From Malacoraja senta (taxonomy: Eukaryota): 64,000 nucleotides of DNA. Both the position numbers and the translations under genes were made by a program. The stretch lies in assembly GCA_038087875.1 (NCBI GenBank), contig CM075979.1:21762001-21826000 (forward strand), given 5' to 3'. This document shows positions 12,369-62,864 of this stretch, one piece after another (the stretch's first letter is position 1; every line of letters starts with the position of its first letter). Below the pieces are notes generated by a model. That model ran no database searches, was not told the DNA's origin, and was given only the letters and a program-made list of their open reading frames with translations.

Positions 12369-20473
<8,105 letters not shown>

Positions 20474-20817
20474 CTTGGGCCGTGACGTAAGAGGAGCAAC
20501 GATCACGGCGCGCGCGCTTTTATTCCTCACCACCGCGCGTTACACAGCGCATGCGCCGTCACACATCTTCACTATTCAGTCTCCGGGGCGGAGCACCTTC
20601 AGCCTTTGTGGGTCAGGGGGTTGGAGCTTCACCTCAGGTCAAATAGATACAACATCCTGGAGTAACTCAGCAGGACATGCATCTTTCGAGCGAATGGATG
20701 GGTGAATATCAATGGACTTTTTTTAAAGCAGAGATAGATAGATTCTTGATTAGTACAGGTCTCAGGGGTTATGGGGAGAAGGCAGGAGAATGGGGTCAAG
20801 GGTCAAGAGTGTTTTTT

Positions 20818-22530: not shown

Positions 22531-22730
22531 ATAAACAGGATTGTGGGAGGGAGAGATAGATCAGCCATGATTGAATAGCGGAGTAGACTTGATGGGCCGA
22601 ATGGCCTAATTGTGCTCCTATTAATGACCTTATGACGTTTCGGGTTGAGACCCTTCCTCAGACTGAGAGTCAGGGGAGAGGGAGACACAGAGATAAGGAA
22701 GGGTAAGGTGTGAAAATGAGACATCAAAGT

Positions 22731-26209: not shown

Positions 26210-26276
26210 ATGGGGCGGCTGGGGAACCCACTGCGGCCACTCCTGCTCCTGTTGGTGATGTTGGCGCCACATTCAG
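26210..26276 (+). CDS. NCR3LG1: B7-H6-like exon 1: signal peptide MGRLGNPLRPLLLLLVMLAPHS
   Basis: Strong Kozak context (ACCATGG), hydrophobic core, phase-1 donor CAG|gtcaga. Confidence 0.85.
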
Positions 26277-29200
26277 GTCAGAGCCGTGGCTGGGCTGGGC
26301 TCGGGTCGCAGAATGGGGAGCACGGTGCCGGGGTGCGCGACCTGCCTTTTCCGGGGGGTGGTCGCTGCCTCGGGGGTTTAGCCTGGCATCGTGGGCGGCA
26401 CGGACATTCTGGGCCGAAGGGCTTGTTCCCCTATTGTACTGTTCTATGTATAAAGATTAACGTGGTTCTGGTAGGCGTGTTCCTATGATATACTGTGCCA
26501 TGTTCTGTGTATAAAGCCCAGCAAGGATATTGTGGGCCAAAGGGCCTGATCCTGGGCTATACTGTTGTGTAATAGCACAAACATTACGGGCTGACAGCTC
26601 TGTTCCTCCACTGTACTGCTCTATGTGTAATTGTCAGGGCGGCACAGTTTAGATCATTTTTGTAGGGTGCATTCTAACATTCAAACATTTTAACATATTT
26701 TAATATGTATATTTGTAAAAAAAGATATACATATTTGAATATGTATTTAAAATATTTAAAATATTCTAATATGTACATTTTCCCCCCAATTTACAGGACA
26801 GTTGACGTTGAAAGCAAGCAAAAGTCCAGCGGAACTCATCCTGTACGAAAATGGACTTCTCGAGTGTGAGATTGCTAATCTCAGTGCGATTACTTTGAAC
26901 CCAAATAATTTAGGCGTTTTATGGGTTTTTACCCGTGGAACTGAAAAATTAAATATCTTTATGTATTCTAACGGACAGATAACAAATCTGTGGAAGGAAG
27001 CAGAGCTGTCTGAAAGCTCCATTTTACATGGAAACATGTCACTTTACCTGAGACATGTTACGTTAAAACATTTTGGGGAATATCGCTGTGAGGTTGTTAT
27101 TCCACCAAATTACAAAGCTTCTCTGACGGTAAAGCTTGAAGTTTTAGGTAAGGAGATTTCTTGCACTTCACTGTAAATTATTTAATATTGTGATAAAACA
27201 ATATATATAGAGCTGTAGTCATTCAGTGCGGTAACAGGCCTTTTGATCTATCTCGTCCCTGCCGACCAATATGCCCCACTTTGCTTTCAAACCAAAGCTT
27301 TATACTGGCTTGATGGAGTTTGCAAAATTATTTTCTCCGAAATACAAACTTATATCCAAACTTTTTCAGTCTTCTTACTGTAGGAAGGAAGCCATTAAGC
27401 TGGCGAGAAGATTTAGAAGCATGTTGTCAGGACTCGAGGACTTGAGCTATAGGGAGAGGTTGGGCAGGCTAGGACTTTATTCGTAGTCATACAGCACGGA
27501 AACCAGCCCTTCAGTCCAAATGGTCCATGCTGATCAATATGTCCCATCTGCCCATATTTGGCCCATATCAGTCTTGACGTTTCCTATCCATGTACCTGTC
27601 CAAATGCTTTTAAATGTTGTTGTAGTACCTACCTCAACTACCTCCTCTGGCAGCTCATTCCATATACCTACCACTCTCTACCTGAAATTTTTGTCATTTA
27701 AATCTTTCCCTTCCCACCTTAAAACTATGTCCTCTGGTTCTTGATTCCCCTACTCTGGATACAATACTTTGTGCTTTCACCCTATGTATTCCCCTCATGA
27801 TCTTATACACGACTATAAGATCACCTCTCAGCCATCTGCGCTTCAAGGAGTAAAGTCCTAGCCTGCCCAAACGCTCCCTCTAGCTCAGGCCCTTGAGCCC
27901 TGGCAAAATCTTCCTTCGTCTTCTCTGCATTCTTTCAAGCTTAATGGTAGTTTCTTAGAGCATGGAGACCAAAAGATTTTGGGTATAAGTTTGTATTTCA
28001 GAGAAAATAGTTTTGCAAATTCCATGGTAGACACAAAATGCTGGAGTAACTCAGCGGGACAGACAGCATCTCTGAAGAGAAGGAATGGGTGACGTTTCGG
28101 GTCAAGACCCTTCTTCATGGGTGACCTTTCGGGTGGAGACTCTTCTTCTAATGCAAATTCCATCATGCTAGTATAACGCCTTGGTAGGAAAGCAAAATTC
28201 TACATTTATTTGATATCTGAAGGAAGAACAAATGTTATTGGAAACTCTCATATCAGGTAGAAACTGAACTGAAAGATATCAAATGTCATAGGTTGATTGC
28301 GTTGCATGGGAGCATCCACGCTATTTCACTAAACTAAACTGGGCTCATGGAAGAGTTCCCAAACCAAGTCTTTATGTGACCCAACAGTATGTTTTCTATG
28401 GTACACAAAAATGCTGGAGAAACTCAGCGGGTGCAGCAGCATCTATGGAGCAAAGGAAATAGGCAACGTTTCGGGCCGAAACCCTTCTTCAGACTGATAG
28501 GGGGTGGGGAGAAGAAAGGAAAATAGGCGGAGGAGGAGCCCGAGGGCTGGGGGAGGGGAGGAGACAACCAGAGGGCTGATGAAGGGGAGGGGACAGCAAG
28601 GGCTAGCAGAATTGGGAGAATTCAATGTTCAAACCCCCAGGATGTAGACTGCCCAATCGGAATATGAGGTGCATTTCCTCCAATTTCCGGTGTTGCTCGA
28701 TGTGGCCATGGAGGAGACCCAGGACAGAGAGGTCAGATACGGAATGGGAGGGTGAGTTGAAGTGCTGAGCCACCGGGAGGGCAGGTTGGTTATTGCGGAT
28801 TGACCAGAGGTGTTCGGCGAAACGATCGCCAAGCCTCCGCTTGGTCTCACCTATGTAGATCAGCTGGCATCTAGAGCAGCGGATGCAATAGATGAGGTTG
28901 GGGGAGATGCAGGGGAACCTCTGTCGCACCTCCGCCTTTTTCCTTTCTTCTCCCCACCCCCTATCAGTCTGAAGAAGGGTTTCGGCCCGAAACGTTGCCT
29001 ATTTCCTTTGCTCCATAGATGCTGCTGCACCCGCTGAGTTTCTCCAGCATTTTTGTGTACCTTCGATTTTCCAGCATCTGCAGTTCCTTCTTTAACACAA
29101 CAGTATGTTTTCTATGTTAAGTATAGCTGTTGAGACATTAATATATCTTTTTTTTTTATAGCACAACCCACAGTAACTATTGTTTCTGAGAAGCTTGTGG

Positions 29201-32200
29201 AGGTTGGCAATGGAGGAGAGATGGTCTTGGGTTGTCAGTTAAATGGATATTATCCTTGCGAATGCAAAACGGATTGGTTTCAGTCAAACCCATCACAAAA
29301 GAAAACAAAGCTGTTAACTGATATCTGCATCGCCCCTCCAATCAAAAATCCTGATGGGACATGCAACGTGACCACTGAAGTTCGACTGGAACCAGGTGTA
29401 GAAGATATTGGCAGCAGTTTTGAATGCCGGGTGACACACAAGGCATTTCCAGAGCCATACACTGCGAAAGCTGCAGTGACTTTGAAAGGTCAGTTAGTTT
29501 TAGTTTTGGAGATGGTGTGGAAACAGGCCCTTCGGCCCAATGAGTCTGTGCTGACCAACTATTTCCCATACACTAATTCTATCCTACATATTAGGGGCAA
29601 TTTACAGAGGCCAATTAATCTACAAACTCACATGTCTGGAATGTGGGACAAAACCAGAGCACCCGGAGGAAACCCACGCTGTCATGGGGAGAACGTACAG
29701 ACAGCACCCGTAGTCCGGATTGAACCTGGGACTCTGGCGGTGTAAGACAGCAACTCTACCGCTGCGCTGTAGTGTTCTTTCTATTTTTTAATGAAAAGTT
29801 GAAATTTCAAACTTGGTTACGTTCATGTTGAGGGGTAGAGTCACAGAGTAATCCAGCACGAAAACAGGCCCTTCAGCCCAACTCATTCATGCCGACTAAG
29901 ATGCCCCATCTCAGCAAAGCCATTTGCCCGCGTTTGGCATATATCCCTCTAACCCTTTCCTCTCCACGTACATATCCAAATGTCTCTTAAATGTTGTGAT
30001 AGTACCTGCCTCAACTACCTCCTGCAACTCGTTCCATATACCCAAAAGGTAGTCAGGTTCTAATTAAATCCTTCCCCCCCTCACCTTAAACTTAGGATCA
30101 GAAGTGATTTTTGGGATGGGTGCAAAGTTGTAACGTGGGGTAGTCATAGAGTTGTACAGCAAGGAAACAGGCCATTCGGCCCAATGTCTATACCATCAAA
30201 ATCCCCATCAAGTTTGTCCCATTGGCCCACATTTGGTCCTTATCTCTCTGACCCTTTCCTATGCAAGTATTTGTCCAAAGATCTGTTAAATGTTATTATT
30301 ATATCTGCATCAGCTACCTCCTCGTGCAGCTCATTCCATACAACCACCACCCAATGAATAAAAAAGTTGCCCCTCAGGTTCCTATTAAATCTTTCCCTCT
30401 CACCTTAGACTATGTGCTCTGGTTCTTGATTTCCTACCCTGGGTAAAAGACTCTGAACATTCACCCTTTCAATTCCCCTCTGGATTTTATACACCACTAT
30501 AAGCTGAAGATAAAACAAGTATGATTTAAAAAAAAAAAAAAGTTTGATAAAGGCTTTTTAAACGGAGTATTTTTATAACTCCTTTCTGCTAAATCTGTCC
30601 ATGAACCTTTTTCTGCTAAATCTAAGTACATCTGTAACTATAATTACATAGAAACATAGAAACATAGAAAGTAGGTGCGAGAGTAGACCACCAGGCCCAT
30701 CGAGCCCGCACCGCCATTCGCTCATGGCTGAACACTAAACAGACACCCTTACCCACAAACAGTAGACACAAGACACAGAACACAAGACCTTGTCAAAGTG
30801 TTGAGTATTTATAACTTCTATAACTTTTTTGATAATTGCATGACTCTTAAGGGCTAATTGCACTTTTACTTTTATAAACAGTAAGTTTCACATCCTAAGT
30901 AAAGAATTTTCTTCTTTTCTCTTTATTTCTTACCTTTTATCAATGGCTTTTAAATTCTCCCGTATGGAATTTTTTTTCCTCTTGGTCACTTCCGAGTCTT
31001 TTCTCGAACATGTTCAGGCTTTTAAAAGTAGATATGAGCGGTTCGTTCTGCACCATCTTCATCAGTTCATAAGTCATAGGAGCAGAATTATGCCATTCTG
31101 CCCATTGAGTCTACTCTGCCATTCAATCAATCATGGCTGAGCTAGCGCTCAACCTCTCAACCCCATTCCATCTCACCCCATTCAACTGCCTTCTCCCCAT
31201 AACCTTTAATGTCTTTACTAATCAAGAACCTGTCAATCTCCACTTTAAAAATACCCAATGACTTGGCCTACACTGCCATCTGTGGCAATGAATTCAACAG
31301 ATTTACCACCCTCTGGCTAAAGAAATTCCTCCTCATCTCTTTTCTAAAGGTATGTCTTGTAATCTTGTCATTTTTTTTGCACTTTTGTATTACAGAAGCA
31401 GAAATTCATCTGTCCAAAAGCTCAATAATTGGAAGCATCATTGGAAGTGTACTTTTTTCTGTAATGCTGTTAACGGCTGGAATTTACCTGTACATGCTGT
31501 ACATTTATAAAGGTAATGCTTATCTACTGTGGATGAATTTATAGAAAACGATTCAAAGAATCTTAAGTTATTTGGCTGGGGTACAATTAAATCTTTTTGC
31601 CTTCATGCTAATTTTAGTTTCATGTTTAAAAAATTCAACGTGGAAACATACCCTTCAGCCCACCGAGTCCACGCCAACCATCGATCATCCGTTCACACTA
31701 GTTCTATGTTATCCCACTTTCTCATTCACTCCCAACACACTTGGGACAATTTACAGAGGACAAATAACCCACAAACCCGCACGTTTTGGGGATGTGGGAG
31801 GAAACCGCAGCACCTGGAGAAAACCCACGCTGTCGCAGAGAGAACGTGTAAACTCCACACAGACAGCCCCAATGTTAGGATCGACCCCGGGGTTCTGGCG
31901 CTGTGAGGCAGCAGCTCTACCGTCTGCACAACTGTGCTGACCTAATTGTATAATTTTCTAGTTAACCTGTGCTGCACAAACTTGTGACAATTTTGGCATT
32001 GCCAACTATACTGTAAATGATTAATCTACTAACTATAAATGATCAATGATATTGTTGGTTAAGTTTGGTCCCACAAACAGTATTTAGCAGATATTTGTTA
32101 ATGATTATTTAAATTGATGTTCTTATTCCATTTCAAGTCCATTGCTCTGTGAAAGTGGTAACACAAGTAGATGGAGTGGTAACAAAGGCATAGGAGATGC

Positions 32201-35200
32201 TTGCCTTCACTGGTCGGGGAATGGCGTATAAGAGTCAGGATTTATAGGACTTTGGTTAGGCCACATTTAGAGTATTGCATGTGATTCTGATTGCCCATTA
32301 CCGGAAGGATGTGGAGGCTTAGGCAAGGGTGCAGAAAAGGTTCACCAAAATATTGCCTGGATTAGAGGGTTTTAGCTGCAAGGAGAGATGGGATAGACTT
32401 GGATTGTTTTCTCTAGAATCACCAGAAGATACGGGAGGCCGGATAGAGGTATATAAAATTATAGAAAGGATAGACAGTTGGAACCTCTTTCCCTGGATGG
32501 AAATGTCAAAGACTAGAGGGCAGAGATTTAAGGTGAAAGGGACAAAGTTTTAAATATATACGCAGGGCCAGTTTATTTTACACAGTTTATTATGGGTACC
32601 TGGAACCTGCTGCCAGGGATGGTGGTGGAGGCAGAAACGATAATTTTTATTTTAGAGATTTTTAGATAGGCACATAGACATGCAGTGAATGGAGGGATAT
32701 GGATCATGTGCAAGCAGAAGAGATTAGTTTAACAACATTATGATGGGCACAGACTTTGTGGGTCAAAGGCCTGTTCCTGTGCTATGCTGTTCTATGACTA
32801 TAAGTATTGGTTTAATTTGATATTCATCAGTCAGAAATGCTGATACCTCTATATAAGAATTCATATCCTCCATGCACTTAGTGCCATGAAATTGTAGGTG
32901 CAGTTTGATACAAATGTTTGTATTCATTAAACATTATCTTCTAACTTCAGAATGGCAGGCAGTGACTAGTGGGGACCGCAAGGCTCGGTGCTGGGACTGC
33001 AGCTATTTACAATATACATCAATGATTTGGATGAAGGGATTTAAAGTAACATTAGCAAATTTGCAGATGACACAAAGCTGGGTGGCAGTGTGAACTGTGA
33101 GGAGGATGCTATGAGAATGCAGGGTGACTTGGACAGGTTGGGGGAGTGGGCAGATGCATGGCAGATGAAGTTTAATGTGGATAAATGTGAGGTTATCCAC
33201 TTTGGTATCAAAAACAGGAAGGCAGATTACTATCTAAATGGCGTCAAGTTGGGAAAAGGGGAAGTACAACGGGATCTGGGGGGTCCTTGTTCATCAGTCT
33301 ATGAAAGTAAGCATGCAGGTACAGCAGGCAGTGAAGAAAGCGAATGGCATGTTGGCCTTTATAACAAGAGGAGTATAGTATAGGAGCAAAGGGGTCCTTC
33401 TGCAGTTGTACAGGGCCCTAGTGAGACCACACCTGGAGTATTGTGTGCAGTTTTGGTCCCCTAATTTGAGGAAGGACATTCTTGCTATTGAGGGAGTGCA
33501 GCGTAGGTTCACTAGGTTAATTCCCGGATGGCGGGACTGTCATATGCTGGGAGAATGGAGAGGCTGGGCTTGTACACTCGAGTTTAGAAGGATGAGAGGG
33601 GATCTTATTGATTGTTAAGGGTTTGGACACGCGAGAGGCAGGAAACATGTTCCCGATGTTGGGGGAATCCAGAACCAGGGGCCACAGTTTAAGAATACGG
33701 GAAAAGCCATTTAGAACGGAGACAAGGAAACACTTTTTCTCACAGAGAGTTGTGAGTCTGTGGAATTCTCTGCCTCAGAGGGTGGTGGAGGCCGATTCTC
33801 TGGATACTTTCAAGAGAGAGCTAGATAGGGCTCTTAAATATAGTGGAGTCAGGGGATATGGGGAGAAGGCAGGAACGGGGTACTGATTGGGGATGATCAG
33901 CCATGATCACATTGAATGGCGGTGCTGGCTCGAAGGGCCGAATGGCCTACTCCTGCACCTATTGTCTATTGTCTAACTCATGATAGTTGTGAATTTTAAC
34001 ATTGAAGCAGTTCACTTGCCTTTGATCTAATTCAATATCCTTATTGGTCTGAAGTGATCTGTTATTAAGAAATGTTGGGCTAATCTAGATGGCGGACCTG
34101 AAATGGAAATAAAATAAAATAAGAGGATTTCACAATCAAATCTGAGCCTTCACTACATAGAACATAGAACAGTACAGGAACAGGCCCTTCAGCCCATAAT
34201 GCCCGTACAGAACAAGATGTCAGGTTAAACTACTCTCCTTTGCTTGCGTATGAGCCATAATCCCTTCACTAAAACTTGATCATTCCAACTGATAGGAATT
34301 TTCAGGAAAAGACAAAGCTAATTTGCACAAATGCACCGAGTCTTTGGCCCAGAGTAGGGGAATTGAGAAACAAGAGGACATAGTATTAAGGTGAGGGGGA
34401 AAGATTTAATAGGGACCTGAGGGGCAAAATCTTTGCACAGAGAGCTGCCGGAGAAGGCAGTTGAAGCAGGTATTACGACAATGTTTAAGAATCATTTAGA
34501 GAGGTACATGGATAGGTTTAGAAGGATATGGGCAAAAAGCAGGCAGGTGGGACTAGTGTAGATGGGGCATGTTGATTGGCGTGGGCAAGTTGGGCCGAAG
34601 GGCCAGTTTCCACGCTGACTATGACTCTATATTTGGAATAATCCATCTTTAAATTTCTAATTTTCCTTCATTTATTCTCAGTTCCACCCAATGTATGTGA
34701 TCTTCAGATGCCTGCTCGATTTATCCATCAACAACCTGCAGAGATTACCTGTCACGTGTCTGGATTCCGACCTGATGTCATTTCTGTTGGCTGGTATTTG
34801 AGGAGAAGGAATGATGCTGAGGAGACCTTCATTGGTGAAAGCAAAAGGGAGCAGTGGATTATAAGGTTTGGCAAAGCAAAGGAGATAGCAGAAATAGGAA
34901 AGAGGAATTCAACTGACGTTAATTGGAAAGTCAGACAAAGTAGTTTTGTCCAACATGATGATGGAACACAGAGCTTTTCCAGCACTCTTGAGATTTGTCC
35001 TGACTTAATGGAGGACAATAAAGCAGAAATCATATGTAGAGTGTCGTATCCAACTGGAACTCGGGAGAAACGCACCTGTTTACAAGTTGATGGAAGTAAG
35101 CATTTTACAGATATGAAGTCATTGCGTAGAAACAAGAAACTGCAATTGCTGGTTACAAAAAAAAAGGACATAAAGTACTAGACTAACTCAGCGGGCTGGG

Positions 35201-38200
35201 AAGTGTTTCTGATGTTTAGAGTAAGGACCCTTCTTCCATCAGGAAGCTTTCTGACCCAAAACGAATGAAGAAGTGTCCCGACCTGAAACGTTTCCTACCC
35301 ATTTTGGAAATAGGGTCCCGACCAGAAAGATTGGAAGGGTTCCATCCTGAAACAACACCTATCCTTGGCTGAAGAAGGGTTCCGTCCCGAAATATTATTT
35401 ATCCATGTTCTCCAAAGATGCTGCCTGACCCGCTGAGTTACTCCAGCACTTTGTCTCCTTTTGTTTTAAGTCAGTGTCGGGAGACAACAGTATTGCGGAC
35501 TCTTCTTCAATTTATCCAAGTTGTAGATCACCCATATGGTTTCTTGATTCATTAATTTCTGATTGTATGTCCTAGAATTTACAGTCTTTAAATTTATAGA
35601 ACGGAGGTCCTTTACTTTTCACAGAGTTTGTGATTATTCACTGTGAACAGCAAACTATGCAAAAAACATTTGGAAAATGCTACCTTCGCAGTTAAAGTGA
35701 TGCATCGTGAGTTATGTAATAGTTCTGCATTATTTGCCTTCGTCTTATAGATGGTTTTAAGTACATCCACTGCAATAAGATAATTTATTGAAAAGCTTTC
35801 TTTAGGGGCAATTGTAGCTAATAGTTACTGGTATGGGATCAAAGATGTGGGACTAAAAGATGTGTAAGTAAAACAGAAGGCACCATAAGTTTAAATACTT
35901 CAGTATTTAAAAATGCACCTGGGACCACGTCTGTAGTGTCTGGAGGACTGGGGAGGAATTGTAGCAGTGTACTGGAAAGGATTTGTGGACTGGGAATCCC
36001 CTTGAAAAATAGTTGTTGGGACAAGATCAGTTTGAAACTGTTAAACACTGAGATTAATAGATTTTTGTTAGGATATTTACATGGATGGCATCTTTTACAA
36101 TTTTTGGGAAACTCCACGGCATTTTACAGGCAGGGAAAAACTTTTGAGATTTAGTTATAAAGTTGGAAACAGTTTATGGCAAGAAGGTACATTAATGGAT
36201 AAGATAAAGCCAAAAATTGGTTGAATGTTGGGATTTCCTTGTTTGCTGAATGGCAAATCTTATGCCCAAATTCCCAACTGCCTTTGATAAGATTATCTTT
36301 CTCTAAATTTGCCTTGAAACAGCACTATCGAGTCTGAAATTTACTGTGTGAATGAGAAATTAAGGATACAGCATGAGTATGGGAAGAAAATGGGATAGGG
36401 AGTAGATAGGTTTAGGCTTATTGTCAGGTGTACCGAGGTACAGTGAAAAGCTTTGTTTTGCATGCTGTCCAATCAGTTCATATAATAATGCACATAAATA
36501 CAATCAATTCAAACTCAAGAACAATAGGTAGAGCAAAGGGGAAGATACAGAGTGCAGAATATAGTTCTCTGCATTGTAGCGCATCTGTTCCATAGACAAA
36601 GTCCAATGTCCGCTATAGAGTAGAGGTGAATCGGACAGTATCCTAGCTTGTGGAAGAACCATTCTGAAGCCTGATAACAGAGGGGTAGAAGCCGTTCCTG
36701 AGTCTGGTGGTGTGCGCTTTCAAGCTTCTGTACCATGAGAAGAAGGAATGACCTGCATGGGACAAGTCTTTGATTATGTCAGCTGCTTTCCTGAGTCGGC
36801 ATGAAGTGCAGCTGGAGACACTGGTGGGTAATCTGGTTTGTGTGATGGACTGGGCTGCATCTACAGAAATTAAAATGTTACAAGCCTAATTGGCACAAGT
36901 TTATTGCTGAATTGTAAATGACCTTTGCACTGCTATATGAAAGACGCACAGCATCTTTTCCTTAAGATTGTGAATGTTAAGCTGATTTTACTTTGTTTTT
37001 TTCTCCTTAGTTGCTCCTAAGTTGGGGAACATAATCACACCTCATGTTGTGCGTCACAACACTTCAGTGATGCTGACTTGTCCAATAAGTTTTTTCATGC
37101 CACGTCGGTTAACAATCAGTTGGTATGAAAGAATACATGGGGTAAAATCTCTTTTGCTGGACCACACCGAGGAAAATGAGGCAGAAAGCACGGTGGGCCG
37201 GTATTCCCACTGTCTGCGTGAGTTTACCTATCCAGACCACACTTACAGCGTCCACAGCATGCTTACTTTCATTGCTTCAATTCAAGAAAATAATGGAAAA
37301 GAATATTTATGTGAAGTGAATCACGTTACCTTGAAACAACAAGCCGAGAAACAGGTTAAGCTGGAAGTGAAAGGTAACTCAAACTTAAAGTCTTTGATTG
37401 CGCATTCACCATCAAACGTAGCCATTATTATGAAATATTTGCCAGAGGCATTAAAATGGCCTTCCACCATTCATGGGGGAGAAGGCAGGAGAATGGAGTT
37501 GAGAGGGAAAGACAGATCAGCCATGATTGAATGGTGGAGTAGACTCGATGGGCCAAATGGCCCAATTCTGCTCCTATGACTTTATACCTAGTGTGGAAAT
37601 GTCATCCCTCAGCTTCCCATTAAATCTTTCCCCTCTCACCTTAAACCTATGTCCTCTGCTTCATACACACCTCGAGGGCCTTTCTCCACCTCCCCCAGTC
37701 CTCAGCGACCACTTCTCAGTCAGCAGTGCCAATGTTTTAACATCATGACTATATTTTGTGTTTACAAATGTAGTAAAATTCTATTTTATGATTTGCAGCA
37801 TTTCCTTCACTTGATACCATCCGGAGCGAACCAGTGAATCCAGAAATTGACAAAGAAATGACTCTCTCCTGCAAAGTGCACTCGTTTTATCCTAAAGAGA
37901 TTTCTGTCCAATGGGTCAAAGATAAGAAAGCCATAAAAGGGATTGAAACATCTGAAATAATCGAGAATCAGGAGAAATTGTATGAATTCACCACGACTTG
38001 CACCATAATTCCAACGTTATCAGACAGAAAGAGTAAATATCAATGCTTGGTCACACATGAGAGCCTTCCCAAGCCAAAGTTTGCGGAATATGTTCCAGAG
38101 AATTTGGGTATGCTTCCTCTCTTTTCAAAGATTATTTCTGCTATTTAGACAATAAGGACATTTTTTGTTCCTCATTAAATTGTGTTCTAATTTCATTATA

Positions 38201-41200
38201 TTATCTTGTCAGCTTTCTGTCATATCATTACTTTTACCTGTACATTTGCTTCTGGTTGGCAAAAAGATTATTGAGTAAATGCTGTAATTCCTCATGCTCG
38301 AGAACTTAGAACAGTATTAAGTATTCACTTTATTGTCATTTCACTGAGTACTTGCATACACAGAAGAAACAAAAAATTGTTTCTCATCAGTTTTGTCATC
38401 AGTGCAATTAATAAAAACAGAAATAAATACTTACAAGTTAAAAATTATCATCTCTAAAATAGAACTAAAACAGACATTCAGGCAGAACAATCGATCCCTA
38501 ACATAGGAACAATTTAAAGCGCTGTTCAGTGGCTTCACCTTGACAGGTGACTAGCTGGGAGGGGGGGGGGGGGGTTAGATGTGGGTGTGTATGGGGAGGG
38601 GACACAGTTCCATACATTCAACATAGAACAGTATAGTGTGTAGGAAGGAACTGCAGATGCTGGTTTATAACAAAGATAGACACAAAATGTTGGAATAACT
38701 TAGCAGGTCAAGCAGCATCACTGAAGAAAAAGAATAGGTGACGTTTCGGGTTCGACGAAGAGTTCCGACCCGGAACGTCACCTATTCTTTTTCTCCAGAG
38801 ATCCTGATCCGCTGAGTTATTGTTTTAGAACAGTTCAGCACAGCAACAGGACCTTCGGCCCACAATGTCAGTGCTAAACGTTTAGTCTTTAAAGGTACAG
38901 CATGGAAACAGGCCCTTCGGCCCACCAAGTCTGCGCCAACCAGCGTTCACCCCCATAAACTAACACTATCCTACACACTGGGGACAATTTACAATTTACA
39001 GAAGACATTTAACGTGCAAACCTGTACGTCTTTGGATAGTGTGAAGAAATGGAGCACCCATTTTGCCCCCCTCACAGAACTATGTCCTCTGGATCTTGAT
39101 TCTCCTACCCTGGCTAAACGACTGTGCATTTATCCTATCTATTCCTCTCATGATCTTATACACCTCTATAAGATCACCCATCAACCTCATGTACTCCAAG
39201 GAATAAAGTCCTAGCCTGCCCAACCTCTCTCTATAGCTCAGGCCCTCGTGTCCTGGGCTAGAATCTTCTTCGTATATACTCTTCGTAAATCTTCTCCGCA
39301 CCCTTTCCAGCTTTCCAGTTGTTATTTCTAGTCAACTTACAAACACTGATTACATCCTCATTGTACAAAAACGTTTCTGGAACATTACCTAAAACAATGT
39401 TTTAAGATGCAGTTCAGCTTTTCTTATTCCTCTTTCTTAGTATCTTCTCCCAAAGTAAAAGAAATTACTTGTGATCCTCCGAACCCTGAAGTCGGGAAGA
39501 CAATGACTTTGTCCTGTGAAATAATGGACTTTTATCCAGCGAATATTCAAATTGACTGGTTTAGGGATGAAGTGAGAATAAATGAAAATACAAAATATGG
39601 AATCGCTAACGAAGAATTGATGAATGAACACAGTCTCTACAGCAAAGTCACCAAATTAACCTTGAGTCCAAGCACTTATGATCATCAACATGAATACAAG
39701 GTTGAAGTTTATCATTCAAAATCTTCCACCAAACCTCAGAAGCAATGCTTCCACTTACTTCTTAAAGGTGAGTTAAGGTTCTCTTTATCAAGCTGTGGTA
39801 AAATGAATTCCAGCTGTTATTTGGAAATCATAATCAGCCAGAGCTGATTCCAAGACCTGAAAAAGTTAATTGAGAGTTATTTTGAGTGTAATAACATCAT
39901 ACTGGTGTCTTAGAAAACGGCCCTTATGGTGTTTTCCCATAATAGATTTTGTTTTTCTTTCCTCATAAATTGCATGAGAGCAAGTTTTATTCCATTTTAG
40001 CGATTTTGGGTAGTGATTTATGAATTTTGTAAAGGTGAATTACAGAATTCACACAAAAGGCCGTAACGTTGGACTTTGCTATAATTTTCTAATATTGTAT
40101 TCTTTTAAATTTCTATTGTTTTGAAAAGGAATAATTCAATTTTTGGGCAGTACAGTGGCGTAGCTGCTAGAGCTGCTGCCTCACAGGGCCAGAGACCCAG
40201 CTTTAATCCTGACCTCGGGTACTGGCTACGTGTGGAGTTTGCAGGTTCTCCGTGACTGTCGATTTTGTATGGGTGCCCCTTTTACCTCCCGCATCCCAAA
40301 GACATGCAGATTTGTAGGTTACATGGCCGCTGTAAATTGCCCCCATGTGTAGGGAGACTATGAGAAAGTGGGATAACATAGAACTTGTGTGAACGGGTGA
40401 TTCATGGTCGGTGTGGATTCGGTTGGCTGAAGGACCTGTATCTCTAAAGTAAACTAAACTTCCCAAACCTCCACCACCTAGAATGACAACACTGGGGGTG
40501 TGGGAGCAAATGGAATTCATCTGACTTGGATATGTTACATAGGGTCATAGAGTGAAACAGTGTGGAAACAGGCCCTTCAGCCCAACTTGCCCACACCGGC
40601 CAACATGTCCCAGCTACACGAGTCCCACCTGCCTTGCGCTTGGTCCATATCCCTCCAAACCTATCCTATCCATGTACCTGTCTAAGTTTCTTAAACGTTG
40701 GGATATTCCCAGCCTCAACTACCTCCTCTGGCAGCTTGTTCCAAACACCCACCACTCTTTGTGTGGAAAAGTTACCCCTCAGATTCCTATTAAATCTTTT
40801 CCCCTTCACCTTGAACCTATGTCCTCTAAGTCTTGCAATTCTTTTATTGGAATGAGTTTGCCACCCACTTGAGACCCACTTGTGCAGAGAGGGCAGTGTG
40901 TTTCATTCTGCACATAGGTCTCACCAATGCTTTTTTATATACAAAAGGGTTCTGGTACACATATTGCTCCTTGCTTTTGGTGTCAAAAGCAGATTATCGT
41001 CCTATATGCTGATTAAGAGACTGACCGACTAATGTTATTAATTTGATTCTTTAAACTTTTGTAATTTTTTTGTAATATAAAAAATGTTAAAATGTAGTTT
41101 TAAACTCTTTAGAGGAGCTGGTACTCCACGCTGTACCGTAGAGAAATGCGGGCAAACGTGACTAGCTGAAGGGCCTGTTTCCATGCTGTACAGTACTTTG

Positions 41201-44200
41201 ACTATGATTAAATGGTGGAGGAGTGACAACTTTGTAAAAATGACTGTGAATGGTTATCCACTTTATCCATGCCCCCTCGTCATCTTGTACTGTTACAGAT
41301 CTCAGCATTGCTTCCTGATTTCTTGGATCCAGGAAATCTTTTTTTTACCCCTTCAAAAAGGAGCTTTTATTATATACTAGACTAAGTGGGACACGTTGGG
41401 TCCCAGCATCACACGGGAGGGCTGGTCACCAACGCAATATTCCACCTCTCCACTAATTCCAATATTGCTCGCCAGTGGGGGGGCCTTTCTGTTGCGCTAG
41501 TATAGGTGTTGCGGGCCGAAGGTACTGGTTTCCAGAGGGCTAGTATAGACATTGTGGGCCAAATGGAGTCTTGGGCTGGCAGCCAACTGTTGCAACGATT
41601 TTAAAAGCCAAGCCAAGGCAAACAATTGGGCTGCAGCCACCTGACAACCAAAATTCATTTTGTGAACACAAATTTTTTTAAAAAGCGAGGCAAACAATTG
41701 GGCTGCAGCCACCTGACAACCAAAATTCATTTTGTGAACACAAACTTTAAAAAAAAAGGCGAGGCAAACAATTGGGCTGCAGCCACCTGACAACCAAAAT
41801 TCATTTTGTGAACACAAACTTTAAAAAAAGGCGAGGCAAACAATTGGGCTGCAGCCACATGACAACCAAAATTCATTTTGTGAACACAAACTTTTTAAAA
41901 AGGTGAGGCAAACAATTGGGCAGCAGCCGCTTCGAGGGGACTCACCGTGGAGTAGATGTGCGTTCAGTGTTATTCGCAGCTCAGAGAGCCGCGACCCTCT
42001 CGCTTCCTGGGCCTGGCAGAGACTGAGTGAGGCACTACACTTCTGTTTTTTATAGTCCCTCCCCCCTGCCGCCAGCAGGGGCAGCAGAGAGAATGGGGAA
42101 TTTTTTCAAAACATTAATATCTCTCTGATTTTTAATCGATGGGAAAAATCCTCTGGTCACGGAAGGCGGAGGGGGGCTCTGAGTGAGGTGGCCAAAAATG
42201 ACGGCCGTAGGTAGCGGCGTTCTCTCGGAAATCGCAGCACAGTGGGCCAAAAGCGGTTAAGATCAGACTTTTAGTAATATAGATTCACAGTTTACAAAGT
42301 ATTGCGTCATTCAAAACTGCTGCTCATTCAGTTTGCAACACTGACCAGCAAATTACGACATCATCAACCCTATCCACGATGCACTCGAGCCTCCCAGGAC
42401 ATCTTGGCAGCTAGTGACAGCTTGGTGGATGTAGAGCACCTTTAAATTTGTTTGAAATATGTAAGGGTTATAAAGAGGCTTTAAATATATACGTAAATGA
42501 CTTAAACAAATATTATTAACACATTAAAACTCTAACAAATAATTAACACTAAAATGAAAATGGTGAATTCACCTATTTCCACTGGATAATCCCTTTCAAT
42601 TGAATGGGACAGTCATTCACGTTAGTTTTTCTAGCAAACCTGAGGATGAAATACAAAGTGGATTGGACCTATCTTGTCACACATCCACCGTTTAGTCAGA
42701 GTCGTAGAGTTGGCAAGCATAGAAATGGGTCCTTCGGCCTGCCTTGTCCATGCTGACTAAATTGGCAGTCTGGGAAAATCCCATTTTCCTGCATTTGGTT
42801 CATAGCCCTCTGAACATTTTTCTCTCCATACATCTGTCCAATGTCTTTTAAAAGTTATAATTACATCCGCTTCTATAGCTTCCTCTGGCAGCTCATTCCA
42901 GGTACGGTCAACCCTCTGAGTGAAAAAAATGGTCATCCCTTTAAGCCTAACCTGGGTGCCTGGAATGCAGTGGGGGTGCTGGGGTGGTGGTGGGCAGTGG
43001 AAATAATGGCGTTTAAGAGGCTTTTAAATAGGGACATGGATATACAGGGAGTGGAAGGATCACGTGCAGGCAGATAAGAATTTGTCTTGGTATCATGATT
43101 GGCACAGACATTTGTTGGCCGAAGGGCCTGTTCCTGTGCTGTACTATTCTATGTTTCAAATGTATTTTCTTTTCAATATAGGCTCACCAACATTTTCAGA
43201 CTTCAAAATGGTGCCAGAGATCCCATGGTTTGGTGAATATTTATCCATGTCTTATTCCATACGTGGCCTCTCAAGAAAGGATTTCATTTTTGAATGGTAT
43301 AGAGGATCTGAGCCAGTGAAAAGTGGAGTAACTAATTCAGATTTTGTGTGTATCTCTGACAACAATTACAATGTAGAGAGTTGCCTTACATTTTTAGTAA
43401 CCGCGGAAGATTTTGAAAGAGAGTTAATCTTTCTGTGTAAAGACCGTTATAATATTGAAGTATTCAAAAGGCGTATTCAACTGCCCCTAAAAGGTGAGTG
43501 TGTTGTGAAAATGATTTGTTTAACTATATTTTGATAAGTTATTATTCTAAATTTGTATATAACCAACATTGAAGACAGTAAAGGTTTTACAATGAGTGCA
43601 GAAGAATGGCTTTTGTTGTTGACACAAACACCCTTTTATCTACTTTCCATCTCTGGCCTTTGTCCACCCATCTGCCAATGAAAAACTCTCACCTGAATGA
43701 ATCTACCTATCATTTGCAAGGCTTTGTCCCACGCATCTCTTGTCCAGCTTTTACTATCCCTGCTAAAATCAGTATGAAGAAAGTCCCAAACTAAAACATT
43801 GCTTATCCATGTCTTCCATAGATGCAGCCTGACACGCTGTTACTCCAGCACTTTGTAGTTTTGTTTAGCTTTTGTTGTTCATCGCCTTAAGGGCCTGTCC
43901 CACTTGGGCATCATTTGCGCGTCACGCAGATGGCGCGCGAAGATTTTGTGAATCCCAAAATCCTGGGGCACCACGCGCGACCGTGCGTCACTGCCTACGC
44001 CACCACGTCTCACCGCGCGCCATGCGCGCGTTACGTGCATGTCAAGACGCGGACGTGATGCGTGAATGATGTCGCGTCGTGACGCGTAAATGATGTCGCG
44101 TAAATGACGCGCAAATAACGCCCAAGTGGGACAGGCCCTTTACACAGGTTTATAGTCAAAACTTCTTATTTTTGGGTGATTAGTCTAGTTTAGTTTAGAG

Positions 44201-45927
44201 ATACAGCGCAGAAACAGCCCACGGAGTCCAGCCGACCAGCGATCACCTCGTACACTAACATTATCATACACACTAGGGACAAATTACAATTTTTACCAAA
44301 GCCAAGTAACCTACAAATCTGTACGTCTTTAGAGTGTGGGTGGAAATCGGAGCACCCGGAGAAAACCCATGCAGTCATGGGGAGAACGAGCAAACTCCGT
44401 ATAGACAGCACCCATAGTCAGGATCAGACCCAGGTCTCTGGCACTGTAAGGCAGCACTGCTACCAGGTGTCCAGAAGAGGCTTACCAGAATGATGCCTGG
44501 ATTAGTGGGTAGTAGCTGTCAAGAGAGGTTGGGTAAACCTAGTGTTTTCTCTGGAACCGTAAATTGCAGGGAGACCTGTTAGAAGTACCGGTATATAAAA
44601 TTATGAGAGGCAAAGATAAGTTAGACAGTTAAAGACGAGCATATATAGCTTTAAAGTGAGAGGGGCAAAGTGTAATGTGTGAGGCAAGGTTTTTTACACA
44701 GTAAGTAGAGGGTGCCTTGAATATGTTGCCTGGGGTGGTGGTGGAGGCAGATATGTTAGTGGCGTTTCAGAGAATATTCGATAGACACATGGATATCCAG
44801 GGAATGGAGCGATATGGATCACATGCAGGCAGAGGAAATTATGTTAATTTTGCATAATGTTCAGCACAAACATTGTAGGTCCAACGGCTTGTCCCTATGC
44901 TGTACTGTTCTATGGTCTAATCAAAGGTGGGGCCCGACACTTCTTTGGGGTGTGGGAGAAAACGGGAACACCTGGAGGAAATCCACAGTCTCATGGATAA
45001 TGTGCAAACTCCACACACAGACAGCACCTGAGATCAGGATCAAACGTGGGTTTCTGGTGCTGAGGCAACAGCTCTGTGTTTGGTAGTGGGTAGTTAGTTT
45101 GAATTTGGGCGATATTATTGGCACCAACTATAGAAATAGGGTATCTCTGCAAAAAGGGTGGCACCACGGGGGTGAAAAGCCAGAAGAGTGGTGGGGGCAG
45201 GACAAAGCCTGGCATGTGATAGATGGATATAGGTGAGGTAGGTTTTTGATTGTCAGATGGTTGGACAAAGGCCAGAAATGCAACAAAAAAAAAGTTTCAA
45301 AAGAGGATAGAAGAGGCATGAAATTTGAAGCCAGAGGAAGTAGTGTGGGTGGATGAGGGCAAAGGGAATGGGAAAGGAAGAATCAGGTGTGCATCCAGGT
45401 GGGGCACAGGGTAGAGAGGGTTAAAAAAAAGGCGAGGGCAGTAAAAAGGGCTAGGGGTGTTTGTAAGGTTAATTACCAAAAATTGAAGCCTCCACTGTTC
45501 ATACCAGTGGGTTGTAAGCTAACAAAGCGGAATAACATAATTTTGTTTGCCCAGGTCACTTTGGAACATAAAGTAAGCATTAATTTAACTTGTATTTGAT
45601 ATTTGTGATTTCAATTTTTCCACAGCTGTGGCTCCTAAAGTATCAAGTTCTATCAGCAATAATCGGTTCAAAATAGGTGGAAAATATACCCTTACTTGCA
45701 GGATTGAACATTTTTGCCCAATGGATATAGAAGTTGTTTGGTGGAAGGGATGGAAAGATTGCACGGATGATCAAATTATGGGAAAGCCCAAAATGGACAA
45801 AGGACTGTACTCTACAATCACAGAGCTGCCAATTCTCATGGAAGAAAATTCGGTAAATTATGTTTGTGAAGTTCGACATGTAAAAACCAATGAAATTGTT
45901 GAGAAGCCATTCAAACTGCAGGTTTAA
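26210..45927 (+). CDS. NCR3LG1: B7-H6 / NCR3LG1-like gene, 10 exons, 962 aa: SP-IgV-IgC1-TM-6xIgC1
   Basis: Exons 26210-26276, 26797-27147, 29162-29488, 31396-31512, 34682-35095, 37011-37373, 37799-38107, 39441-39767, 43182-43493, 45626-45927 are all joined by phase-1 GT-AG introns into one 2889-nt ORF. The V domain GEYRCEVVIPP...TVKLEVL and C1 PPIKNPDGTCNVTT match human B7-H6 motifs (GEYRCEVVVTP...TVQLEVV; PTIKNMDGTFNVTS). The gene is tail-to-tail with KCNJ11, as human NCR3LG1 is. Confidence 0.85.
26797..27147 (+). CDS. NCR3LG1: B7-H6-like exon 2: IgV domain
   Basis: ttacag|GA CAG TTG...GTT TTA G|gtaagg; B-strand Cys, C-strand Trp, GNMSLYL, GEYRC. Confidence 0.93.
28401..29097 (-). mobile_element. 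Young Penelope-like element: GIY-YIG endonuclease fragment between inverted pseudo-LTRs, 19-bp TSD
   Basis: ORF 28603-28929 (LIYCIRCSRCQLIYIGETKRRLGDRFAEH). Near-identical ~130-bp inverted repeats. Direct repeat CAACAGTATGTTTTCTATG at 28382-28400 and 29098-29116. Confidence 0.92.
29162..29488 (+). CDS. NCR3LG1: B7-H6-like exon 3: extracellular IgC1 domain
   Basis: tttatag|CA CAA CCC...TTG AAA G|gtcagt; C-x-LNGYYP, W, FECRVTH. Confidence 0.92.
31396..31512 (+). CDS. NCR3LG1: B7-H6-like exon 4: stalk plus transmembrane helix
   Basis: ttacag|AA GCA GAA...TAT AAA G|gtaatg; EAEIHLSKSS-IIGSIIGSVLFSVMLLTAGIYLYMLYIY-K. No stop codon in the exon. Confidence 0.85.
32949..33975 (+). mobile_element. 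CR1 3' fragment with frameshifts (same family as 4481-6201)
   Basis: ORF pieces 33090-33383, 33406-33618 and 33608-33886 match the CR1 ORF2 C-terminus; (CTATTGT)n tail. Confidence 0.92.
34682..35095 (+). CDS. NCR3LG1: B7-H6-like exon 5: post-TM IgC1 domain 1 (with ~35-aa insertion)
   Basis: ttctcag|TT CCA CCC...GAT GGA A|gtaagc; EITCHVSGFRP, W, DDGTQSFSSTL, IICRVSY. Confidence 0.85.
37011..37373 (+). CDS. NCR3LG1: B7-H6-like exon 6: post-TM IgC1 domain 2
   Basis: ctccttag|TT GCT CCT...GTG AAA G|gtaact; LTCPISFFMP, W, YLCEVNH. Confidence 0.87.
37799..38107 (+). CDS. NCR3LG1: B7-H6-like exon 7: post-TM IgC1 domain 3
   Basis: atttgcag|CA TTT CCT...AAT TTG G|gtatgc; LSCKVHSFYPKEISVQW, YQCLVTHESL. 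Confidence 0.9.
38635..38820. mobile_element. Two Penelope pseudo-LTR halves fused head-to-head
   Basis: GTGACGTTTCGGGTTCG...CGACCCGGAACGTCAC palindrome with flanking inverted similarity (gagttat / ataactt). Confidence 0.7.
39441..39767 (+). CDS. NCR3LG1: B7-H6-like exon 8: post-TM IgC1 domain 4 (no F-strand Cys)
   Basis: tttcttag|TA TCT TCT...CTT AAA G|gtgagt; LSCEIMDFYPANIQIDW; YKVEVYH where YxCxVxH is expected. Confidence 0.88.
41377..42283 (-). mobile_element. Non-autonomous Helitron
   Basis: The minus strand starts A|TCTATATTACTAAA and ends with hairpin GGGAC-CCAACGT-GTCCC then TTAGT-CTAG|T (A^T target, no TSD). Confidence 0.85.
41615..41930. repeat. ~62-65-bp tandem repeat (about 4.5 units) inside the Helitron
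   Basis: GGCAAACAATTGGGCTGCAGCCACCTGACAACCAAAATTCATTTTGTGAACACAAA(C)TTT(A)n repeated head-to-tail. Confidence 0.92.
43182..43493 (+). CDS. NCR3LG1: B7-H6-like exon 9: post-TM Ig domain 5 (divergent; no B-strand Cys)
   Basis: caatatag|GC TCA CCA...CTA AAA G|gtgagt; LSMSYSIRG where LxCxVxG is expected, FEWY, IFLCK. Confidence 0.8.
43890..44139. mobile_element. PIF/Harbinger-type MITE, intact
   Basis: TIR AGGGCCTGTCCCACTTGGGC at both ends; TTA target-site duplication (43887-43889 and 44140-44142). Confidence 0.88.
45626..45927 (+). CDS. NCR3LG1: B7-H6-like exon 10: post-TM IgC1 domain 6 and stop
   Basis: ttccacag|CT GTG GCT...CAG GTT TAA; LTCRIEHFCPMDIEVVW, YVCEVRH. Confidence 0.88.
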
Positions 45928-61565: not shown

Positions 61566-62807
61566 TCACAAACAGTCGCTCTGAAACACCGAGCTCTTTC
61601 TCCTCCTAACGCCGGGCGAGATTTCGAAGTTGACCACCTTTCCCTCTCCCTCTATCTCCACCTCCTCCTCCTCCGCCTCTTCGCCCCCCAGGCTGACCTG
61701 GGGCCGGTGCCTCGCCTCAGCCTGCTCCATCTCCAGCTGCCGGGCGCCGAGCGGCGGCGTGGGCACTTTGACAGTGTTGCCGAACTTGGAGTAGTCGACC
61801 GAGTAACGTCCGTCCTCCTCGCAGACGACGGGGACGAAGCGGTGCCCCCACAGGATCTCGGTGGAGAGGTAGGAGGTGCGCGCCTGCGTGGTGATGCCGG
61901 TGGTCTCCACCACGCCCTCGAGCACGACGACCAGCTCGAAGCGGGCGCGCGCCAGGCCGGCGGCCGTTAGGCGGTAGAGCGGGCTCGAGCCGTCGATGAC
62001 GTGCGCCACGATGATGGGCGAGACCAGGAAGATGGAGCTGCCGCTCCCCGCCGGCCCGTCCAATGAGACGTCGAGCTGCCGCAGCGGCTGCACCTCCCCC
62101 TCGGCCGTGCGCGCCCGCCCCACCAGCTGCGCGCGCACGCAGGCGCCGATGATCATGGAGGTGCGCAGGTCGCCCACACGGAACATGAGGCACAGGCGGC
62201 CGTCCCGCGGCGCCACCACCGCCGAGCGGCTGAAGATGAGTGTCTCGGCCCGCCGCCGCGCCTGCGACGTCTTCATGAAGATGCAGCCCATCATGATGGC
62301 GTTCACCACCAGCCCCACGATGTTCTGCGCCAGCAGCACGGCGATGGCGAACGGGCACTCCTCGGTGATCATCCGCCCGCCGAAGCCGATGGTCACCTGC
62401 ACCTCGATCGAGAAGAGGAAGGCCGATGTGAAGGAGTGGAGGCTGGTGATGCAGGGCACAGCAGGGGGAGACGGCCCCCCTCCACCTCCTCCTCCTCCGT
62501 CGTCCAGGTCGCCGTGAGCGAAGGCCAGCAGCCACCAGATCATGGCGAACAGCAGCCAGCTGCACAAGAAGCTCATGGTGAAGATGAGCAGCGTGTGCCG
62601 CCACTTCAGGTCGACCAGCGTGGTGAAGACGTCCTGCAGGAAGCGGCCTTCATCTCGGATGTTGGTGTGCGCCACATTGCAGGCGCCGTACTTGTCGACG
62701 AAGCGAGCCCGACGTGGCCTCTCCCGGCAGCGGGGACGCGCCACCACCTCCTCCTGCAGCCGCAGCACGTACTCCTCGGCCACCAGCTCTTTCCTGGCCG
62801 ACAGCAT
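61566..62807 (-). CDS. KCNJ11: ATP-sensitive inward rectifier K+ channel Kir6.2 (413 aa, single coding exon)
   Basis: MLS.RK...EEYVL N-terminus, [19 protein letters not shown] filter, [31 protein letters not shown]. An intronless CDS next to a B7-H6 homolog favours KCNJ11 over KCNJ8. Confidence 0.93.
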
Positions 62808-62864
62808 GGTGGGCCCATCGCAGGGCGAGTGCCCTCACCCGCCGGCCGGGCTCGGCTCAGCTCA

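Follow-up and report, generated by a model that had tools for sequence, protein, structure and literature searches.

Antibodies, T-cell receptors and MHC molecules are characterised by C1-set immunoglobulin domains, which are taken to be extracellular. The locus described here, from the skate Malacoraja senta, raises the question of whether an array of such domains may instead lie in the cytosol. Within a 64 kb stretch of genomic DNA (the window), the initial annotation described a B7-H6-like protein in which six Ig domains follow the only transmembrane (TM) helix. We asked whether the gene model holds, on which side of the membrane the array lies and what it might do there.

Gene model

Re-splicing and Pfam analysis confirmed the ten phase-1 exons and the single open reading frame (leader, IgV, IgC1, TM and six Ig domains) originally claimed. 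All ten exons in the window have AG/GT ends and all nine introns are in phase 1; the joined exons (2889 nt, from a genomic span of 19.7 kb) translate to 962 residues and a stop. The features are listed in Table 1. The exon 1 leader is 91% identical to that of XP_032894882, and the first AATAAA after exon 10 is at 46935.

Table 1. Features of the skate B7-H6 gene and its neighbour in the window
Feature	Position	Strand	Residues	Remarks
Exon 1, leader	26210..26276	+	1-22	GC/CpG-rich start region
Exon 2, IgV	26797..27147	+	23-139	Pfam V-set; human B7-H6 alignment
Exon 3, outer C1	29162..29488	+	140-248	B-F cysteine pair and N208-V-T sequon retained
Exon 4, stalk and TM helix	31396..31512	+	249-287	Helix ~31425-31505; phase 1-1
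Exon 5, tail C1 D1	34682..35095	+	288-425	Immediately after TM
Exon 6, tail C1 D2	37011..37373	+	426-546	Cysteine pair retained
Exon 7, tail C1 D3	37799..38107	+	547-649	Cysteine pair retained
Exon 8, tail C1 D4	39441..39767	+	650-758	Without F-strand cysteine
Exon 9, tail C1 D5	43182..43493	+	759-862	Tyr in place of B-strand cysteine
Exon 10 coding part, tail C1 D6 and TAA stop	45626..45927	+	863-962	
KCNJ11 (Kir6.2) ORF	61569..62834	-		Convergent downstream neighbour; synteny marker only

Pfam places exon 2 in the V-set, at 24.8 bits and so slightly below the cut-off of 26; it assigns the C1-set to exon 3 and to each of exons 5-10. Five of the six tail domains score above the PF07654 cut-off; the weakest, D5 in exon 9, falls below it (20.5 bits against 21). 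The best solved-structure sequence matches for the tail are IgA1, SIRP-alpha and IgG. No B30.2 (PRY/SPRY) Pfam match was obtained for any skate exon, and the gene is not a butyrophilin. No extra Ig-type exon and no second copy was found in the 64 kb window, and the idea of another gene or another Ig locus there was rejected.

The sole strong internal hydrophobic stretch covers residues ~257-286 in exon 4, with a Kyte-Doolittle 19-mer value of 2.11; the leader reaches 1.37 and exons 5-10 never rise above ~1.0. These TM calls were made by hydropathy and not by a trained topology predictor. They bear out the earlier statement that exons 5-10 hold neither a second leader nor a second TM segment. 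Exon 4 is, as had also been stated, free of stop codons and ends in a normal donor (AAG/gtaatg).

Identity of the gene

Judged from sequence, the skate gene is B7-H6 (NCR3LG1), as had been proposed. Human B7-H6 is the best sequence match in the PDB, over residues 45-250 (E 6e-20), and its ectodomain is matched in fold by Foldseek with a TM-score of 0.87 on the target. A 90% identical Amblyraja model carries the name NCR3LG1. The downstream ORF is that of KCNJ11, its top solved-structure match being Kir6.2 (E 6.7e-161); KCNJ11 also adjoins NCR3LG1 in human. The skate and human proteins further share the leader-V-C1-TM ectodomain and the IgC sequon at N208, which is reported to be glycosylated in human B7-H6 (PMC10684670).

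The residues given as NKp30 contacts of human B7-H6 in PMC3135353 include G62, V125, T127, P128 and K130. The FG loop encoded by exon 2 (VIPPNYK) aligns with this NKp30-binding loop region; the Gly, Val, Pro and Lys are retained in the skate, while T127 is Pro and the alignment has a one-residue insertion. The family consensus retains T-P-x-K at the contact loop.

The two proteins differ behind the membrane. Human B7-H6 has 454 residues and a Gag-homologous tail, described as carrying an ITIM and SH2- and SH3-binding motifs (PMC2715080), whereas the skate tail of ~675 residues has no Gag homology and consists instead of six C1-set domains, as indicated by Pfam and by an AlphaFold model of an orthologue. 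This Gag tail characterises the human form, and most named vertebrate homologues do not have it.

The junction between the TM helix and the tail

The fusion could be an artefact in which gene prediction has merged B7-H6 with a separate gene made up of exons 5-10. Intron 4 is 3.2 kb long and contains chance poly(A)-like hexamers, and read-through of the exon 4 donor would give a 10-residue tail. However, the junction is crossed by contigs from which introns are absent. The joining of exon 4 to exon 5 on which the initial annotation depends is found in five of the seven Logan members of a related-skate cluster; three Logan contigs of 3.1-3.9 kb from this related skate encode the full 949 residues, and a newt-like form of 969 residues runs intron-free across the junction on a 7.5 kb contig. 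This support comes from relatives (at most 87% identical) whose contigs bear no RNA label, and a sequencing-run search with exons 5-7 listed no RNA run. The same fusion occurs in more than 100 models across jawed vertebrates, and a second gene would have neither leader nor TM segment. The artefact reading is scarcely credible and in our view has already been largely refuted.

Exon 4 is symmetrical (117 nt), so it may be skipped in frame. Forms without the TM segment, in which the outer C1 domain is fused straight to D1, are found in Bombina isoform X2 and in P0036 and P0063, and TM-less X2 models are likewise annotated for Varanus, Carcharodon and Cetorhinus. A secreted, TM-skipped isoform is probably made alongside the TM form.

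These exact skips in a frog, a monitor lizard and sharks, together with the symmetry of exon 4 and the disulfide pair retained in D2 and D3, raise a second reading. The gene might have two products, with the array selected in a secreted eight-domain form that acts as a long soluble decoy or adaptor for NKp30; in the TM form the cytosolic array would then be a tolerated by-product. We regard this as rather unlikely. TM forms dominate, with one TM segment followed by C1 domains in 66 of the 67 matches in one search and the TM segment retained in all five of the skate Logan proteins long enough to include it. D1, D4, D5 and D6 mostly lack the cysteine pair, and no glycan site is conserved in the tail, which is a poor fit with selection in the secretory pathway.

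Membrane topology

The predicted main product is the TM form. The skate protein has a leader, a single TM segment and positive-inside charge by hydropathy and charge counts, as a type-I protein would. Of the 47 aligned homologues with a TM segment, 44 carry the more positive net charge on its C-terminal side and the other three are ties, and V-C1 proteins show the same positive-inside bias in 73 of 86 cases (opposite in four). The TM segments of the family comprise 20-23 hydrophobic residues and end in an aromatic/basic cap.

The cysteines differ sharply on the two sides of this segment. The B-F pair is present in all 82 C1 domains that precede it and in 201 of the 400 that follow it; in tail-less V-C1-C1 and Ig-like controls it is present in 27 of 28. 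By position, the pair is found in the V domain (43/45), the outer C1 domain (47/47), D2 (43/45) and D3 (42/45), and is present in few or none of the D1 (5/50), D4 (0/37), D5 (2/32) and D6 (6/28) domains; the F-strand cysteine of D4 is missing in all 37 homologues. Against a cytosolic reading, D2 and D3 nearly always retain the pair, the skate protein itself retains it in four of its six tail domains, and TM-skipped isoforms are annotated. Ig heavy chains, shark UrIg2, SIRP-alpha and tapasin/TAPBPR also have one C1-set domain per phase-1 exon, but there the C1 run precedes the TM segment, as in the VJ, nine C1 and TM arrangement given for UrIg2 (PMC12227049). In the B7-H6 family it lies behind the TM segment and half of the domains lack the disulfide pair.

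Sequons occur at 1.48 per 100 residues outside and 0.60 in the tail, a difference for which the reversed-motif control fails to separate the two sides. The outer N208 column has a sequon in 28 of 47 homologues, compared with at most 6 of 45 for any tail column. On the other side of the argument, the total of 288 tail sequons is somewhat above that in shuffled sequences (234 +/- 14), with a ratio of 1.62 in D2, and the skate tail has two, N363 and N442.

The array could be extracellular or luminal if the leader were unused and the TM segment acted as a type-II signal anchor, or if the hydrophobic segment were translocated or cleaved. Elsewhere C1-set domains are known as domains of secretory-pathway proteins, and the cysteines of D2 and D3 and the sequon excess in D2 are in keeping with this arrangement. 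It is nevertheless improbable, as the V and outer C1 domains retain their disulfide pairs and conserved glycan sites, the protein has a leader, type II would call for the opposite charge bias, and the hydrophobic segment has the length and terminal cap noted above. The charge bias, the cysteine loss and the restriction of conserved glycan sites to the outer side support in silico the type-I topology first suggested, and the C1 tail is very probably cytosolic.

Fold and conservation of the tail

The AlphaFold model of P0005, a 90% identical orthologue, has a mean pLDDT of 87 and comprises eight Ig folds and one helix (265-284). This model was obtained from an alignment of 51 sequences; an alignment of six gave a pLDDT of 46.5. 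In it all six tail domains are Ig beta-sandwiches at high pLDDT, and D1 holds an insert of ~20 residues of low confidence.

Tail domains from sharks, coelacanth, lungfish and amphibians cluster by position in a quick tree (SH-aLRT 84-98), and the shorter array of a lizard falls in four of the six positional groups. The tree was used for these groups only; deep forks, namely the origin of the tail and the relation to V-C1-C1 proteins, lie outside our claims. At deep distance D2-D4 match the ectodomain in conservation (30-41% versus 24-38%) in comparisons with caecilian, lungfish, coelacanth, chimaera and toad, the lizard being lower. D2 is among the best-conserved tail domains. The tail domains have been conserved since before sharks and bony vertebrates split.

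By inspection, no conserved tyrosine motif stands out in the tail apart from residues of the normal C1 framework. The C-termini are variable and correspond to the last part of the G strand in an Ig domain, and a PDZ-binding motif there was rejected. Apart from B7-H6, Foldseek with the whole model returned generic multi-Ig matches (TM-score ~0.2), a titin I-band fragment being second, and the clusters obtained from the ESM Atlas were all unnamed Ig/C1 groups. A complex prediction with two copies of D1-D3 scored 0.00 and carries no weight for or against association.

Distribution among vertebrates

The initial annotation allowed that similar architectures might already be annotated, and this proved to be so. 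RefSeq and UniProt hold V-C1-TM-C1-tail models, mostly labelled 'uncharacterized', from chimaera, sharks, bichir, sturgeon, coelacanth, lungfish, amphibians and reptiles. One TM segment followed by C1 domains was found in 107 of 150 representatives and, in a third search, in 25 of the 30 new matches among 58. No bird or mammal with a C1 tail was present among the matches of these length-limited searches. The number of C1 domains after the TM segment ranges from 1 to 13 per protein.

On these comparisons the C1 tail is old and shared by the family; it is not special to the Malacoraja senta genome. Since it is annotated from chimaera and sharks through to reptiles, the C1-tail architecture looks like the ancestral state of B7-H6. 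The idea of a swappable tail is better recast as an ancestral run of C1 domains, variable in number, that gave way to a Gag-like tail in the human lineage.

Possible role of the tail

Ig-like arrays work in the reducing cytosol in titin, obscurin and filamin-type repeats. The likeness to the skate tail is one of generic fold, as those proteins are soluble and have I-set or filamin folds, whereas the skate array is C1-set and attached to a single-pass immune ligand. A cytosolic tail might likewise serve purely as an anchor or spacer. As a rod of the titin or filamin kind, it would tie the ligand to the cortical cytoskeleton or determine how mobile the ligand is in the membrane, with no part in sensing or signalling. 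The tandem beta-sandwich rod, the titin fragment among the Foldseek matches, the variable domain number and the lack of an evident tyrosine motif would suit this. The matches are generic, however, the position-specific conservation of D1-D6 suggests distinct partners and not length alone, and the human lineage has lost the C1 tail, to judge from the tail described in PMC2715080. We consider a purely structural role fairly unlikely.

In the reading that we prefer, the main product is a type-I membrane protein that exposes V-C1 on the outside and has six folded C1-set domains in the cytosol. A C1 rod starting at the inner leaflet would bind cytosolic partners and would relay cytosolic conditions (the partners present, stress or pathogen proteins) to the outer NKp30 ligand, the outcome being a change in its trafficking, clustering or stability. 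The logic resembles that by which cytosolic B30.2 controls the ectodomain of a butyrophilin. The butyrophilins BTN3A1 and BTN2A1 also combine a B7-like V-C ectodomain, one TM segment and a folded cytosolic domain, and their B30.2 is described as sensing phosphoantigen and signalling inside-out (PMC13681195). The butyrophilins serve as a functional model only, as their cytosolic domain is B30.2 and not a C1 array and the skate ectodomain is that of B7-H6. Given a cytosolic tail, the chance that it is a protein-binding rod coupling cytosol state to NKp30-ligand display is, by this analogy, about even. The full proposal, a type-I skate B7-H6 whose six cytosolic C1 domains form a protein-binding rod controlling an NKp30 ligand, is put forward tentatively, at slightly less than even likelihood. 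More doubtful still is the wider idea that cytosolic C1 arrays are an ancient, undescribed class of sensing or signalling module in the immune ligands of jawed vertebrates. Such modules would be borne by B7-H6 and by at least one further family (V-C1-C1-TM proteins of coelacanth and frogs, V-C1-TM proteins of bichir), would monitor the cytosol for infection or stress and would switch on the NK-activating ectodomain from within; on this view a C1 module was later replaced by the Gag-derived tail in human.

We found no description of cytoplasmic Ig domains on B7-H6 in the searchable literature (titles, abstract starts and passages); Flajnik 2012 and Ohta 2015 may mention them. A conserved cytosolic C1 array, if true, would mean that the C1 fold functions without its usual disulfide environment, and human B7-H6, a target in cancer immunotherapy, would be a derived form with its tail swapped for retroviral Gag sequence. 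The array is present in Xenopus and axolotl, tractable species that offer a direct route to the function of the B7-H6 tail.

Gene structure and identity

The gene comprises ten exons with canonical splice ends, every intron is in phase 1 and the joined frame encodes 962 residues followed by a stop. Pfam assigns exon 2 to the V-set and exon 3 and exons 5–10 to the C1-set. Hydropathy analysis indicates a leader and a single internal segment, encoded by exon 4, and the scan of the tail (exons 5–10, domains D1–D6) found no segment comparable to either. Splice ends, frame, Pfam and hydropathy thus agree with the initial annotation, which had described ten phase-1 exons for a leader, IgV, IgC1, transmembrane (TM) segment and six further Ig domains. 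The outer C1 domain, N-terminal to the TM segment, has six cysteines (164, 172, 174, 195, 207 and 228); Cys195, shared by 41 of 48 homologues, is a candidate for an additional or inter-chain disulfide.

The nearest database proteins are from skates (XP_032894882 from Amblyraja, named NCR3LG1, 90% identity; Leucoraja, 89%; Rhinoraja, 83%), followed by sawfish (69%) and horn shark (59%). These relatives have 963–972 residues each and a layout identical to that of the window protein. Among solved structures, the Amblyraja protein matches human B7-H6 best, across the V-C1 region (E 6e-20). The downstream neighbour is KCNJ11, in convergent orientation, as it is at human NCR3LG1; the KCNJ11 of the window has a glycine run in the loop behind its first membrane helix. 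The window protein contains an N208-V-T sequon, and Asn208 is a used and conserved glycan site in human B7-H6 (PMC10684670, excerpt). Alignment to human B7-H6 shows that its FG loop retains three NKp30-contact residues (Val, Pro and Lys) and has Pro in place of Thr127 (contact residues from PMC3135353, excerpt). On the orthologue name, structure match, neighbour and sequon, the skate gene is a bona fide B7-H6, as had been proposed. Human B7-H6, however, has 454 residues and a Gag-homologous tail (PMC2715080, excerpt), whereas the skate protein has a C1-set tail.

Features of the window
Feature	Position	Strand	Remarks
LINE-type reverse-transcriptase ORF, 555 aa	4430-6094	+	mobile-element remains
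RPL27A gene	about 16100-20500	minus	one exon matched
SNORA3/45 snoRNA	16419-16549		within RPL27A gene region
ALKBH8_N-type fragment	22282-22560	minus	mobile-element remains
CT-rich degenerate repeat	25396-25908		immediately upstream of exon 1
B7-H6 gene	26210-45927	+	exons 1-10
GIY-YIG fragment	28606-28998	minus	intron 2, mobile-element remains
Outer C1 domain	29162-29488	+	exon 3
Broken fragment resembling LINE-type reverse-transcriptase ORF	33045-33883	+	intron 4, mobile-element remains
72-bp tandem repeat, 4.3 copies	41616-41928		intron 8
KCNJ11	61569-62834	minus	convergent, downstream of B7-H6 gene; single ORF, GC-rich

Joining of the TM and tail exons

An annotation artefact that fuses TM and tail ranks fourth of the four rival explanations. 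The contigs that span the junction are from relatives of the window species and carry no RNA label. In the skate cluster, five of the seven members from Logan (assembled-contig proteins) cross the TM–D1 junction and two are C-terminal pieces. The full 949 residues are encoded by three skate Logan contigs of 3140–3886 bases; with a genomic span of 19.7 kb for the gene in the window, these must be spliced copies. A newt-like form of 969 residues lies on one contig of 7529 bases. The proposed joining of exons 4 and 5 is supported by these relatives. One Logan protein, P0010, continues past the end of exon 6 into intron sequence (intron 6, window 37374 onward), where it stops, an intron retention that leaves a two-domain tail.

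Skipping of exon 4 would preserve the reading frame. A Bombina isoform X2 lacks exactly this segment, in the representative proteins P0036 and P0063 the outer C1 is followed directly by D1, and the TM is absent from X2 models of Varanus, Carcharodon and Cetorhinus. These forms make it likely that a secreted protein of eight domains arises as a minor product. That the function lies in this form ranks first among the rivals.

Membrane topology

We aligned 51 B7-H6-like homologues chosen for the V-C1-TM-tail layout, 47 of which have the TM segment. Counted together, these 47 have 67 Lys and Arg before the segment versus 123 after it, and 90 Asp and Glu before versus 23 after; net charge is higher on the C-terminal side in 44 and tied in three. 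Among all 107 tailed representatives the same bias is found in 73/86 and, for forms with at least two pre-TM C1 domains, in 19/21. The core B–F cysteine pair, also checked by eye, is present before the TM in 43/45 V and 47/47 outer C1 domains; in the tail it is present in 5/50 (D1), 43/45 (D2), 42/45 (D3), 0/37 (D4), 2/32 (D5) and 6/28 (D6). The pooled values are 82/82 pre-TM versus 201/400 post-TM. Sequons number 1.48 per 100 residues before the TM versus 0.60 after it; the outer Asn208 column is occupied in 28/47 and the best tail column in 6/45. In the AlphaFold model of the Amblyraja orthologue (mean pLDDT 87) all eight domains are folded, and a single helix (265–284) is followed immediately by D1.

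A tail located outside the cell ranks third among the rivals. D2 and D3 do retain the B–F cysteines, the window protein keeps the pair in four of six tail domains, and tail sequons slightly exceed shuffles (288 versus 234 ± 14); a reversed-motif control gave no discrimination. The secreted form may be the reason for the D2 and D3 retention. In our view, sequence and model together make it very probable that the tail of the TM form is cytosolic.

Distribution and history of the tail

With the horn shark protein as a full-library query, 107 of the best 150 representatives have one internal hydrophobic segment followed by C1 domains, six have none behind it, five contain a pair of segments and 32 lack any past residue 60 (fragments, TM-less forms and other proteins). 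The TM-then-C1 layout recurs in 66/67 matches to the coelacanth tail, and in 25 of the 30 new proteins among 58 matches to a turtle tail. Named sources include chimaera, sharks, rays, bichirs, sturgeon, coelacanth and lungfish, one teleost with a three-domain tail, and caecilians, salamanders, frogs (several Xenopus genes), turtles, gharial, lizards and snakes; no bird or mammal is among those named in the matches listed for the three queries. Tails range from one to 13 domains.

A quick tree was built from 135 domains of 20 chosen proteins. In it, the tail domains of cartilaginous fishes and bony vertebrates sort together by position (SH-aLRT 93, 98, 94, 84, 86 and 85 for positions 1–6). A lizard's shorter array falls in four of the six groups. 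For several of the positions, the skate gene clusters with a single gene each from a caecilian and a lungfish, separate from a second paralogue set. The positional grouping and the two sets argue that the six-domain array is older than the shark/bony-vertebrate split, probably in two paralogous genes. Judged from rearranged paralogues, exon duplication is how the tail changes: P0016 (Amblyraja LOC116984368) has a doubled V-C1 ectodomain, P0047 (Heterodontus) seven D1-type repeats with a 167-residue period, and P0045 (Heptranchias) four D4-type repeats, which fall in the position 4 group.

A second single-pass set also carries post-TM C1 arrays (P0035, P0044, P0058, P0061, P0079, P0092 and others in a separate alignment; P0060 and P0066). 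Its V-C1-C1-TM forms (21 representatives with at least two pre-TM C1 domains; named sources coelacanth and a tree frog) reach 13 tail domains. The charge bias is alike (19/21) and half of the B–F pairs are lost (present in 54/107 domains). The bichir V-C1-TM forms of this second set have ectodomains closer to CD276 than to B7-H6.

Previous descriptions

Many reptile and amphibian models are named NCR3LG1 and most others 'uncharacterized'. The caveat that fish and amphibian annotations already hold such architectures was therefore justified, and the architecture is not new as sequence. Full-text literature searches found no paper describing a C1 tail behind the TM of B7-H6, and the papers that matched a phrase query on cytoplasmic or intracellular Ig domains were unrelated. 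The available portions of PMC6514059, PMC12227049, PMC11599192, PMC12619710, PMC2542381 and PMC13262535 do not mention it, and the B7H6 term is absent from one text supplement of PMC3964593. Xenopus genes do carry the tail. Since Flajnik et al. (2012) reportedly described a large Xenopus B7H6 cluster, that paper or its supplements may conceivably remark on it, although we lean slightly against this. The C1-set tail is a real, ancient feature of B7-H6, probably cytosolic and apparently unstudied so far.

Possible function

At deep distance, D2–D4 are as conserved as the ectodomain and each domain has position-specific motifs, which suggests specific tail partners. A purely structural anchor ranks second among the rivals. 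Our preferred model, for which BTN3A1 with its B30.2 domain (PMC13681195, excerpt) serves as the analogue, is that the tail would be a cytosolic binding rod, which would act from inside the cell to control how the NKp30 ligand is displayed or clustered.
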